A DNA stretch of 36,346 bases from a virus (Duplodnaviria > Heunggongvirae > Uroviricota > Caudoviricetes). The translations under genes were made by a program, and so were the position numbers. This document shows, one piece after another, positions 30,562-33,499 of the stretch (the first letter of the stretch is position 1; the number at the start of each line of letters is the position of its first letter). The DNA lies in the IMG/VR virus record IMGVR_UViG_2529292882_000022, positions 1 through 36,346 of that record; one strand, 5' to 3'. The notes under the pieces are model-generated. The model searched no databases. It was given only the letters and a program-made list of their open reading frames with translations, and was not told the DNA's origin.

Positions 30562-31080
30562 TTATACGGCTTTTTTTACATCTTGTGGTTCTTGCGAAGG
30601 AGCTACAAGACCTTCCTGTTCATGAATACCATGCTCTGACAAAATCTCTTTGCGCTCTTCTGCTGGTAAAGTTTCTAGCATTTGGGCGAGTTGTATGCAC
30701 TCACGCGATACGCCGTGCAGAGATTGGATTTGAGTCTGATCAAAGATACTTGGCATTAGTGCACTAAGTCCACCTTTACTAAGTAGCTTTAATGCCCTCT
30801 GGATTTCCTCTGGTTCTAACTCTGCAACCAAAGCCATTAACACAGAAGCTAACTTATAAGCTGACTTATCGTTATCTAATAACTGCGCCCCTCCTAATTC
30901 TGCCTGAGTGGCATCAGGTAATGAGCTGATATGGTATTCATAAGCAACACCCTTTACTCCTTTGATCTGTCTCTTTTTCCATCCCTCATTAGTTGCTTTG
31001 CGGCTAATACTACTTGCTGAAGACGGAAGACCAGCAACCCCTTGTAGCTCTTTAGCTGAAAACCATTCTTGTGTCATCAC
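30562..31080 (-). CDS. c: Mu-family lysogenic repressor c (D108-like N-terminal DNA-binding domain)
   Basis: Leftward gene at the Mu left end; C-terminus ...[13 protein letters not shown]...[35 protein letters not shown] resembles Mu c, and the N-terminus shares a motif with the N-terminus of transposase A (WFSAKEL.G..GLP.S.S.ISRKA). Confidence 0.85.
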
Positions 31081-31277
31081 AAACCTCGCTTTAAATACAC
31101 GATGTATTCAAAGAAATGAAAAATATATTCACTTTAAAATCATCGAGATAGATGAATTTCAAACAAAACATTTGAATACACTATTGCATTGACAATGTAT
31201 TCACACTAGCATTACTGCATACCTTATCAGCTACCTTGCGGCGTAGCTGATGGCGTAGCTTGTGAGGATTGCATTTT
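31081..31277. promoter_or_regulatory. c-ner intergenic operator/promoter region (early promoter, repressor promoter, enhancer)
   Basis: AT-rich divergent intergenic region with repeated TGTATTCA-type motifs (~31103, ~31126, ~31176 inverted, ~31194) and an inverted repeat CAGCTAC(31228-31234)/GTAGCTG(31243-31249) plus a third GCGTAGCT copy at ~31254-31260, just upstream of ner. Confidence 0.6.
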
Positions 31278-31496
31278 ATGGCGATAAAGAAAAGTAAATG
31301 TGAAGACAAAAGTAGATACGACATTGTTGCTGATCTGCGCAAAAGAGGAAAAAGCCTAGCAGCTCTTGGTCGTGAGAACGGTCTCTCTATCTCTACGGTA
31401 AAAAATGCCTTGGATAAACCTTACCCTCGGGGGGAAAGAATCATTGCCGATGCATTGGGAGTTGAGCCACGAGACATCTGGCCTTCGAGGTATTGA
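31278..31496 (+). CDS. ner: Ner-like early regulator (DNA-binding)
   Basis: 72-aa ORF between c and A; ...[42 protein letters not shown] resembles Mu/D108 Ner; ATG 31278 with GAGGA upstream (track start 31269 is TTG). Confidence 0.85.
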
Positions 31497-31498
31497 AA

Positions 31499-33499
31499 AT
31501 GCAACCACAATGTAATGATTGGTTTTCTGCAAAGAAATTAGAAGGGCTGATAGGTCTTCCAAAATCCTCTAGCGCGATCTCTCGTAAAGCAAGGTTAGAA
31601 CAGTGGGTGTTTCGACAGATACACGGGGTAAGAGGAGTAGCCTATGAGTTTCATATCTCATCTTTACCAAAGGAAACGCAAGCTGCGTTGTTGCTTAGAC
31701 AAGGAGAGATCGAAACAAGCCAGGGCCGTTTTGAAATCGCCCGCCCCACGCTGGAAGCCCATGATTATGATCGTGAGGCACTGTGGAGCAAATGGGATAA
31801 CGCCAGCGATTCCCAGCGCAGACTTGCTGAAAAATGGTTGCCTGCGGTTCAGGCCGCAGACGAAATGCTGAACCAGGGGATTTCAACAAAAACGGCTTTT
31901 GCGACCGTTGCAGGGCATTACCAGGTCAGCGCATCCACTTTGCGGGACAAGTATTACCAGGTACAGAAGTTTGCGAAGCCTGACTGGGCGGCTGCGCTTG
32001 TTGATGGACGTGGTGCATCCCGTCGCAACGTTCACAAAAGTGAATTTGACGAGGATGCCTGGCAGTTTCTGATTGCAGATTATCTGCGACCGGAAAAGCC
32101 CGCCTTCCGCAAATGTTATGAGCGTCTGGAACTGGCAGCCCGCGAGCATGGCTGGAGTATTCCCTCCCGTGCCACGGCCTTTCGCCGGATTCAGCAACTG
32201 GACGAGGCAATGGTTGTTGCCTGTCGTGAAGGTGAACATGCACTGATGCATCTGATACCGGCACAGCAGCGAACTGTGGAACACCTGGACGCCATGCAGT
32301 GGATCAACGGCGACGGTTATCTGCATAACGTCTTTGTACGCTGGTTTAACGGTGATGTGATCCGCCCGAAAACATGGTTCTGGCAGGATGTGAAAACCCG
32401 AAAAATTCTGGGCTGGCGCTGCGATGTAAGCGAGAACATCGACTCAATTCGCCTCTCATTCATGGATGTGGTGACACGCTACGGCATCCCGGAGGATTTT
32501 CACATCACCATTGATAACACCCGTGGTGCAGCGAATAAATGGCTGACGGGGGGCGCGCCCAATCGCTACCGCTTTAAGGTAAAAGAGGACGATCCAAAGG
32601 GACTGTTTTTACTGATGGGCGCGAAAATGCACTGGACAAGCGTTGTTGCCGGTAAAGGCTGGGGCCAGGCAAAACCTGTTGAACGTGCTTTCGGTGTTGG
32701 TGGGCTTGAGGAATACGTTGATAAGCATCCGGCACTGGCTGGCGCATATACGGGGCCAAATCCGCAGGCAAAACCTGATAACTATGGCGACCGCGCTGTT
32801 GATGCAGAGCTGTTTCTGAAAACCCTTGCCGAAGGTGTGGCGATGTTCAATGCCAGAACAGGCCGTGAAACAGAAATGTGCGGAGGCAAACTTTCGTTTG
32901 ATGACGTTTTTGAGCGTGAATACGCCAGAACGATTGTGCGTAAGCCTACCGAAGAGCAAAAACGGATGCTGTTACTGCCTGCCGAGGCGGTGAACGTTTC
33001 ACGTAAAGGCGAGTTCGCGCTTAAAGTTGGCGGCTCCCTTAAAGGCGCGAAAAACGTTTATTACAACATGGCGTTAATGAATGCCGGAGTGAAAAAAGTT
33101 GTGGTCAGATTTGATCCACAGCAGTTACACAGCACGGTTTATTGCTACACCCTGGACGGTCGGTTTATCTGTGAAGCGGAATGTCTGGCACCTGTTGCGT
33201 TTAATGATGCTGCGGCAGGCCGTGAATATCGCCGCCGCCAGAAACAACTGAAATCTGCGACGAAAGCAGCGATTAAGGCACAGAAACAAATGGATGCACT
33301 GGAAGTGGCAGAGCTGCTGCCGCAGATAGCCGAACCTGAAGCACCAGAATCACGAATTGTCGGCATTTTCCGGCCTTCCGGTAATACGGAACGAGTGAAG
33401 AATCAGGAGCGTGATGATGAATACGAAACTGAGCGTGATGAATATCTGAATCATTCGCTGGATATTCTGGAACAGAACAGACGTAAAAAAGCCATTTAA
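31499..33499 (+). CDS. A: Mu-type DDE transposase A
   Basis: From ...[19 protein letters not shown]... onward the protein matches my recollection of MuA almost residue for residue through the C-terminus ...[12 protein letters not shown]; the N-terminal ~60 aa differ from Mu (D108-like). ATG at 31499. Confidence 0.95.

Follow-up and report, generated by a model that had tools for sequence, protein, structure and literature searches.

In phage Mu, the transposition enhancer and the operator O1-O3 overlap according to review text, which also has the transposase MuA's N-terminal domain contacting that enhancer through a region apart from its end-binding region. The N-terminal similarity of repressor and transposase in Mu and D108 is the subject announced by the titles of Harshey et al. 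1985 and Mizuuchi, Weisberg & Mizuuchi 1986. Here we describe the corresponding c-ner-A cassette (about 30562-31700) of a Mu-like prophage of E. coli in the viral record IMGVR_UViG_2529292882_000022, whose 36,346 nt are all referred to below as the window. We observed its sequence relationships, its repeat architecture and conservation, the co-variation of its repressor c with its transposase A, its distribution and the co-residence of cassette types. Since its recognition-helix residues and its operator half-sites differ from those of both D108 and Mu, we predict hetero-immunity of the phage to the two, and we give a probability of roughly 80% to the reading that this is the control module of a Muvirus prophage with a third immunity specificity. 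The architecture is already known and the cassette is public, with its genes annotated generically as 'repressor', 'Ner', 'DNA transposition protein' or DNA-binding proteins; the proposed third specificity is not previously described in the literature found. We found no paper describing this cassette as a separate immunity type, and the PhiR68 papers found concern another phage, PhiR68.2, within a defense-system screen.

The cassette beside Mu and D108

The gene order c/ner/A is identical to that of D108, and the repressor gene is divergent from ner-A-B and lies within ~1 kb of the prophage left end, as in Mu- and D108-type modules. The open reading frames (ORFs) of c, ner, A and B are all intact in the window. 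The genes of the cassette are:

30562-31077, minus strand: repressor gene c, 171 amino acids (aa), from Pfam HTH_Tnp_Mu_1 and PDB matches; N-terminal winged-helix DNA-binding domain (residues ~1-62), central region and Mu-like C-terminal tail (133-171)
31278-31496, plus strand: ner, 72 aa, Cro-like early regulator, from Pfam HTH_35 and the D108 Ner match
31499-33499, plus strand: transposase gene A, 666 aa, from the ORF and Pfam domains
31499-31690, plus strand: 5' part of A, the cassette-specific I-alpha (enhancer-binding) domain, residues 1-~64, matching the c N-terminus at 39/60 residues
31691-33499, plus strand: remainder of A, with the I-beta/gamma end-binding region, DDE core and C-terminal domain (Pfam HTH_Tnp_Mu_2, DDE_2, Mu-transpos_C)

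The N-terminal domain of c belongs to Pfam HTH_Tnp_Mu_1 (PF02316, E 4.9e-23), as does the N-terminus of A, and it matches the solved Mu repressor domain 1G4D/1QPM (E 1.1e-6) and the MuA I-alpha domain 1TNS (E about 1e-6). Repressor and transposase of Mu likewise share an N-terminal DNA-binding fold, and in Mu the operator doubles as the transposition enhancer. However, the Mu repressor has 196 aa rather than 171, and the DNA-binding domains are only 38-41% identical. We found that the c N-domain is 38% identical to Mu and 59% to D108, and residues 1-63 of A are 41% and 50% identical, respectively. Ner (HTH_35, E 2e-25) is 46% identical to Mu Ner and 64% to D108 Ner (46/69 residues by BLASTP, E 3e-33; 64-67% across comparisons). 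Whole A, in contrast, is 94.0% identical to Mu and 94.7% to D108, and B is 99.0% and 99.7% identical.

By its residue matches, the repressor is a mosaic of a D108-clade DNA-binding domain and a Mu-clade C-terminal part. Residues 1-62 are nearer D108 (33/62) than Mu (23/62), whereas residues 86-132 are nearer Mu (25/47 vs 12/47 for D108), as are residues 133-171 (29/39 vs 17/35). At the DNA level, a sliding identity profile places the divergence from Mu in a block of ~1 kb, about 30680-31690. Its right edge is sharp, with Mu identity rising from ~40% to 90% or more across 31664-31724 (A residues 56-75), and coincides with the I-alpha/I-beta border of A, beyond which the A body (31691-33499) is 95-100% identical to Mu, D108 and SfMu. 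The left junction falls within c, whose last 39 residues (about 30562-30680) remain Mu-like (83-90% of DNA, 29/39 residues). Megablast and blastn searches found no Mu or D108 match across the cassette, with only the conserved A body matching; the one phage record that covers it is PhiR68_1 (PV340575.1, 97.4% identity).

An earlier note, made from the sequence, had proposed a non-Mu, D108-like immunity cassette with a matched transposase N-terminus in a Mu-like prophage. Its non-Mu character holds, with c, Ner and A N-domains at 38-46% identity to Mu; the pairwise alignments it called for gave no full-length identity to Mu, and its ORFs and quoted c and A motifs are exactly as it gave them. The body of A and all of B do match Mu (B at 99.0%, and A beyond about residue 65 together with B 94-100% Mu/D108-like). 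The note was right that the repressor N-terminus, Ner and the first ~60 aa of A diverge, but 'repressor N-terminus' was too narrow, since about three-quarters of c diverges; its interval 30562-31700 is likewise close to the diverging block but takes in the end of c that is still Mu-like. 'D108-like' suits the DNA-binding domains and Ner, which are nearest D108 at 50-64%, but not the DNA, which has no D108 match, nor the C-terminal part of c and the left end attL, which are Mu-type.

The motif said to be shared by the c and A N-termini is real, as BLASTP aligned the two at E = 3e-23, and such matched N-domains are indeed the arrangement known for Mu and D108, going by the Mizuuchi 1986 title. 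We collected 160 loci encoding A homologs, 91 of which have a divergent c of the same domain, and collapsed these to 45 non-redundant types. Across the 45, the c domain is on average 0.506 identical to its own A and 0.383 to other A proteins, a difference that 0/10,000 permutations reached. Own-pair identity is highest in the window type (0.66), whose own A ranks first of 45; the c/A identity of 65-68% here compares with 45% for Mu and 56% for D108, and a relative whose A is 74% identical (L112) is at a similar level (0.63).

We found that the excess c/A agreement peaks in alignment columns 20-25, plus one wing position. Aligned to the solved Mu domains, these columns lie between a conserved Pro and the RKA motif and are taken as the putative recognition helix; across the 45 types, repressor and transposase co-vary most strongly there. 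The six residues read (A/S)-S-(S/A)-I-S-R in window c and A, A-T-N-I-T-R in D108 c and A, and (V/S)-A-G-V-(H/I)-Y in Mu c and A. The c and A N-domains share with D108 the framework W(F/Y)xAKEL...GLP...RKA...W..RQ...G.KGV..E(Y/F), but the helix ATNITRKA of D108 is S(A/S)(S/A)ISRKA here, which departs from D108 in 3/6 of the strongest co-varying columns with the same change in c and in A.

On the side, a Logan contig (ERR5014366; locus L175, 1613-4609, protein P0016) holds an apparent fourth Muvirus control cassette. Its repressor, 202 aa long and with 342 member sequences in its cluster, fuses a Cro/CI-type HTH_3 N-terminal domain to a Mu-type C-terminal domain. It is divergent from a 75-aa Ner and from an A of Mu-like kind with an N-domain (HWVTAQECVGMSCFPKHEVSIRRNL...RRKRTGSKALEFHISVLP) of a different clade. 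Since the DNA-binding domain of this repressor is not homologous to the I-alpha domain of A, the rule of matched N-termini is broken there.

Predicted operators and Ner site

Two inverted-repeat half-site clusters between c and ner are enriched and conserved, and they are the predicted operator/enhancer. The proposed intergenic sites are:

31089-31113, unstranded: proposed operator/enhancer O1, inverted repeat CTTTAAATACA-N3-TGTATTCAAAG, 11-nt arms, 91% complementary
31136-31149, unstranded: conserved AAAATCA block between O1 and O2, with a weak candidate integration host factor (IHF) site AATCATCGAGATA (31137-31149, 2 mismatches)
31171-31205, unstranded: proposed operator/enhancer O2, TTTGAATACA-N15-TGTATTCAC, straddling the candidate -35 of the early promoter
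31184-31212, plus strand: candidate early promoter Pe, TTGCAT-17-TAGCAT, weak, placed by position against TTGATT-17-TACATT of D108; predicted transcription start near 31219-31221
31226-31260, unstranded: proposed operator for Ner, made up of the palindrome ATCAGCTAC-N8-GTAGCTGAT at 31226-31251 and, at 31252-31260, a third half-site, GGCGTAGCT

The half-site TGTATTCA occurs three times in 31103-31203, and over the whole 36 kb there are 6 copies where 1.28 would be expected, a count that 0/100 shuffles reached. The core of O2, TGAATACA-N15-TGTATTCA (31173-31203), has 8-nt arms that are 100% complementary and 15 nt apart. D108 has the same layout, with an inverted repeat beside c and an N15-spaced pair over the promoter (AAAATC...GATTTC and CAAATCA-N15-TGATTCCA at the places corresponding to O1 and O2), but its half-site is TGATTTCA, which differs from TGTATTCA at 2/8 bases; the two sets cannot overlap at ≤1 mismatch. 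Allowing one mismatch to each 8-mer, we counted 5 TGTATTCA-like sites in the c-ner interval of the window and likewise of PhiR68_1, with 1 more inside ner and 1 TGATTTCA-like site, whereas D108 and SfMu have 4-5 TGATTTCA-like sites (5 in D108) and a single TGTATTCA-like match each, within ner. The Mu operator region has neither a TGTATTCA-like nor a TGATTTCA-like site at this threshold, and Mu Ner, at 46% identity, has a different operator.

More distant relatives show the same pairing. L112 and a Sodalis metagenome-assembled genome (L012) have an (S/A)(I/V)SRKA helix together with GTATTC/GAATAC half-sites at the homologous places, including AAATAC...GTATT at the place of O1. The operator motifs track helix type, with NITRKA (D108, SfMu) going with TGATTTCA and the window-like helix with GTATTC/GAATAC. 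One candidate operator was dropped or downgraded: ATATATTCAC (31123-31132), the TGTATTCA-like middle copy, lacks conservation in the two variants that diverge most.

Conservation was assessed over 7 aligned variants: the cassettes of the window, of PhiR68_1 and of three E. coli genomes, and two loci whose c proteins are only 84-87% identical. From c to the ner ribosome-binding site, 9/68 positions vary inside the proposed sites against 50/115 elsewhere (Fisher p = 1.7e-5), and the palindrome arms are nearly invariant where their spacers vary. The arms of O1 vary at 1/11 and 2/11 positions and all 3/3 positions of its spacer vary; each Ner arm varies at 1/9 positions and the Ner spacer at 5/8; the O2 core is conserved. 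The AAAATCA block is invariant and occupies the position of AATCATGCTGTTA in D108. Mu and D108 both depend on an IHF site between their operator clusters. Rfam gave no match at E up to 1 in 30200-31800; hence, no known RNA element accounts for the conserved intergenic blocks.

The earlier note had also listed an intergenic repeat set with a short inverted repeat, and both are real: the repeats include the three copies of TGTATTCA, and the inverted repeat is longer than was stated, with 9-nt arms (31226-31234 and 31243-31251) that are 100% complementary and 8 nt apart. The note suggested searching the repeats against D108 sites, and there they part company: the operator half-site differs at two positions, and the Ner palindrome shares only its core and spacing. 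This core, AGCTAC-N8-GTAGCT, is found at the same position in D108, SfMu and L112 with different flanks. Reportedly, Tolias and DuBow mapped the D108 Ner site as an 11-bp inverted repeat, CCGTGAGCTAC, with 8 bp spacing. As a sequence feature only, CCGTGAGCTAC-N8-GTAGCTCACGG is present in the D108 record, so the arms are CCGTGAGCTAC in D108 and ATCAGCTAC here. The GTAGCTG 7-mer is not enriched window-wide (3 found vs 2.16 expected); the support for the Ner repeat is its palindromic arrangement and conservation, not its count.

Two further observations concern Ner. The GGCGTAGCT copy at 31252-31260 directly repeats the right palindrome arm (31240-31248) and abuts the ner ribosome-binding site GTGAGGA; it is invariant in 7/7 variants, absent from D108, and may be an extra Ner autoregulatory site. 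Residues 8-16 of Ner (within 31278-31330) are without the DWHRAD motif present in Mu (RDWHRADVIAGL) and D108 (QDWHRADIVAEL), whose DWH core is kept in the Ner proteins of L112 (DWHRAD), L012 (DWHRAD) and the L175 type (DWHAEQ).

Homology with Mu and D108 suggests the following mode of action for the module. The winged-helix domain of c would bind the GTATTCA/TGAATAC half-sites in O1 and O2 and block the rightward early promoter that drives ner-A-B, the O2 half-sites flanking and entering the candidate promoter. Residues 1-~64 of A, with the same recognition-helix residues as c, would read O1/O2 as the transposition enhancer, and since this I-alpha domain would recognize the same region, repressor and transposase are proposed to compete for one site. 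Ner would bind ATCAGCTAC-N8-GTAGCTGAT just downstream of the promoter and lower both early and repressor transcription in lytic growth. The module would be exchangeable, with one junction within c and the other where I-alpha meets I-beta in A.

Distribution, co-residence and alternative readings

We searched 5426 complete E. coli genomes for the three cassettes and for the conserved A body:

Conserved A body: 83 genomes, 93 places
Mu-type cassette: 26 genomes, 31 places, many in laboratory strains
D108-type cassette: 45 genomes, 45 places
Window-type cassette: 16 genomes (15 full length), 17 places

Together, the Mu, D108 and window types make up roughly all 93 Muvirus A copies in this set. 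The cassette 30562-31700 recurs at 95-100% DNA identity in PhiR68_1, an isolated phage of 37,128 bp, and in E. coli 2014C-3075, MIN10, 22KM0354 and others, and an identical c protein is found on 844 contigs (one source labels it a Salmonella enterica protein). Insertion sites differ; in 2014C-3075, where the cassette is 100% identical, the prophage lies in ddpA, and here it lies in a GH108 endolysin gene, which puts the source genome of the window outside the complete-genome set. With an isolated phage, 15 complete genomes at different sites and 844 contigs, the module is in active circulation.

Strain 22KM0354 (NZ_CP151071.1) is a natural triple lysogen with three full-length, otherwise near-isogenic prophages, one each of the window, D108 and Mu types:

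1459342-1495950, 888730-925430 and 3621350-3658100 of NZ_CP151071.1: the three prophages of 22KM0354 (loci L172-L174)

All three span 36.6-36.9 kb from c to mom (36.6 kb for the window type) with c, ner, A and B intact; in the Mu-type copy, a tail gene contains one internal stop. Over 35.2 kb, the D108-type and Mu-type prophages share 99.2% identity, and essentially nothing but the cassette sets them apart. From inside A onward, the window-type prophage matches each of them at 96-99%, and all three encode an identical B protein. MIN10 has a window-type and a Mu-type cassette together. Co-residence of differing prophages is what hetero-immunity predicts, although this evidence is indirect; hence, the presence of one of each type in 22KM0354 argues for mutual hetero-immunity. 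As a side observation, the search for the window-type cassette reports two places in strain cS51a (NZ_CM176585.1); a same-type double copy there would bear on this argument, and could be a product of replicative transposition or a fragment.

The alternative that survives best, though we hold it unlikely, is that this is functionally a D108 cassette whose sequence has diverged while its specificity was kept, so that the phage would be homo-immune with D108. D108 is the nearest characterized relative (c domain 59%, A N-domain 50%, Ner 64-67%), and its operator geometry and Ner core and spacer are the same. However, SfMu, taken as the same type as D108, has an essentially identical c domain and helix (97%) where the window has 59%; three of the six top co-varying helix columns differ, identically in c and A; the half-site is TGTATTCA rather than TGATTTCA, each phage having only its own set between c and ner and the window region only one TGATTTCA-like site; and there is no DNA similarity across the cassette. 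Moreover, full-length window-type and D108-type prophages share one chromosome in 22KM0354, indirect evidence against common immunity, whereas no genome of the complete E. coli set has two D108-type copies. An assignment to the Mu type is likewise opposed by the 38% identity of the c domain, the unshared operator motifs and the co-residence in 22KM0354 and MIN10.

Much less probable is a reading of the cassette as what is left, decaying or without function, of a defective prophage, with a c/A similarity that is inherited homology only. The window does hold only the first 6.1 kb of the prophage, and its promoter and IHF consensus matches are poor, but the four ORFs are intact, the cassette stands in the isolated PhiR68_1 and in a full-length 36.6-kb prophage, variation among the 7 copies avoids the proposed sites, and the c/A match exceeds that across types, ranking first of 45. 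Similarly, we hold it very unlikely that the c/A identity arose recently, by duplication or gene conversion between the two N-terminal coding segments, instead of through long-term selection for a common DNA target, for all that this is the highest own-pair value of the 45 types, since the coding segments of the two N-termini are only 59% identical in nucleotides and use the same codon at 14/38 identical residues, which indicates that the match is held at the protein level without recent conversion, and L112 has a similar level (0.63); we rejected conversion on this codon usage.

Several points weigh against a third specificity. Our inferences on DNA binding, on where the promoter lies and on the immunity phenotype all come from sequence. 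The helix differs from that of D108 at Ser/Thr/Asn-type positions only and the half-sites at 2/8 bases, so partial cross-recognition is possible. For the Fisher test, the site boundaries were taken from repeats in the window itself, yet they were fixed only once the alignment had been seen, and the unconserved ATATATTCAC copy means that not every repeat need be a site. A promoter and terminator scan of 30200-31600 found no sigma-70-like site scoring at least 9/12, candidate Pe scoring 7/12; hence, Pe is placed solely by its position relative to D108. The interval 31081-31277 has no match to the IHF consensus WATCARNNNNTTR at ≤1 mismatch. Finally, co-resident prophages could in principle arise from cassette exchange after lysogeny, not from superinfection.

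Prophage setting and significance

Outside the diverging block, the prophage resembles Mu closely: attL, the C-terminal tail of c, the A body and B are all near-identical or Mu-like, and the Mu-type attL and c C-terminal domain set the prophage apart from D108. The flanking features are:

30223-30561, plus strand: Mu-type left end (attL), transposase end-binding region; DNA 98-100% identical to Mu and ~75% to D108
33538-34476, plus strand: B, 312 aa, AAA+ target-capture ATPase, outside the cassette and conserved (99.0-99.7% to Mu/D108)

By BLAST, base 1 of the Mu record aligns at window position 30223, and the flank ending at 30222 matches the unoccupied site in E. coli SC418 (NZ_LR778147.1) at 100% identity, which places the host/prophage junction at 30222/30223. 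Hence, the 6.1 kb from 30223 to 36346 make up the left part of a Mu-like prophage.

Two observations concern the surroundings. At its left junction (30086-30223, and leftward over 28366-30222), the Mu-like prophage interrupts the glycoside-hydrolase-108 (GH108) endolysin gene of a lambdoid prophage already resident there. This gene has ynaK/ParB-like, holin and terminase genes as neighbors, and the insertion should disable the lysis module of the lambdoid prophage. In the semi-essential early region, ~250 bp (34975-35226) do not align with the 2014C-3075 prophage, which is otherwise 98-99% identical; the blastn alignment is interrupted between 34974 and 35227, leaving a second small mosaic island.

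To our knowledge, Mu and D108 have for forty years been the only hetero-immune pair used to dissect one fold as both repressor and enhancer reader. A third natural specificity would leave the known mechanism unchanged, and would add an orthogonal repressor/operator/I-alpha set with the tightest c/A match among the 45 types, which might serve in specificity-swap experiments and in multi-copy mini-Mu engineering. That three cassettes make up approximately all Muvirus prophages in the complete E. coli genomes is relevant to predicting superinfection immunity and poly-lysogeny.

More tentatively, and with the odds somewhat against it, the Muvirus prophages of E. coli may carry a small closed set of mutually orthogonal ~1 kb cassettes, those of Mu, of D108 and of the present phage, swapped by recombination at the A border and inside c. 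If so, each cassette would have its private immunity and its private enhancer, because the I-alpha domain would be swapped together with the repressor and operator, and near-isogenic phages could accumulate in a single chromosome, like those of 22KM0354, neither repressing nor activating one another. The repressor, with its D108-clade and Mu-clade parts, would then be direct evidence of assembly from exchangeable halves.

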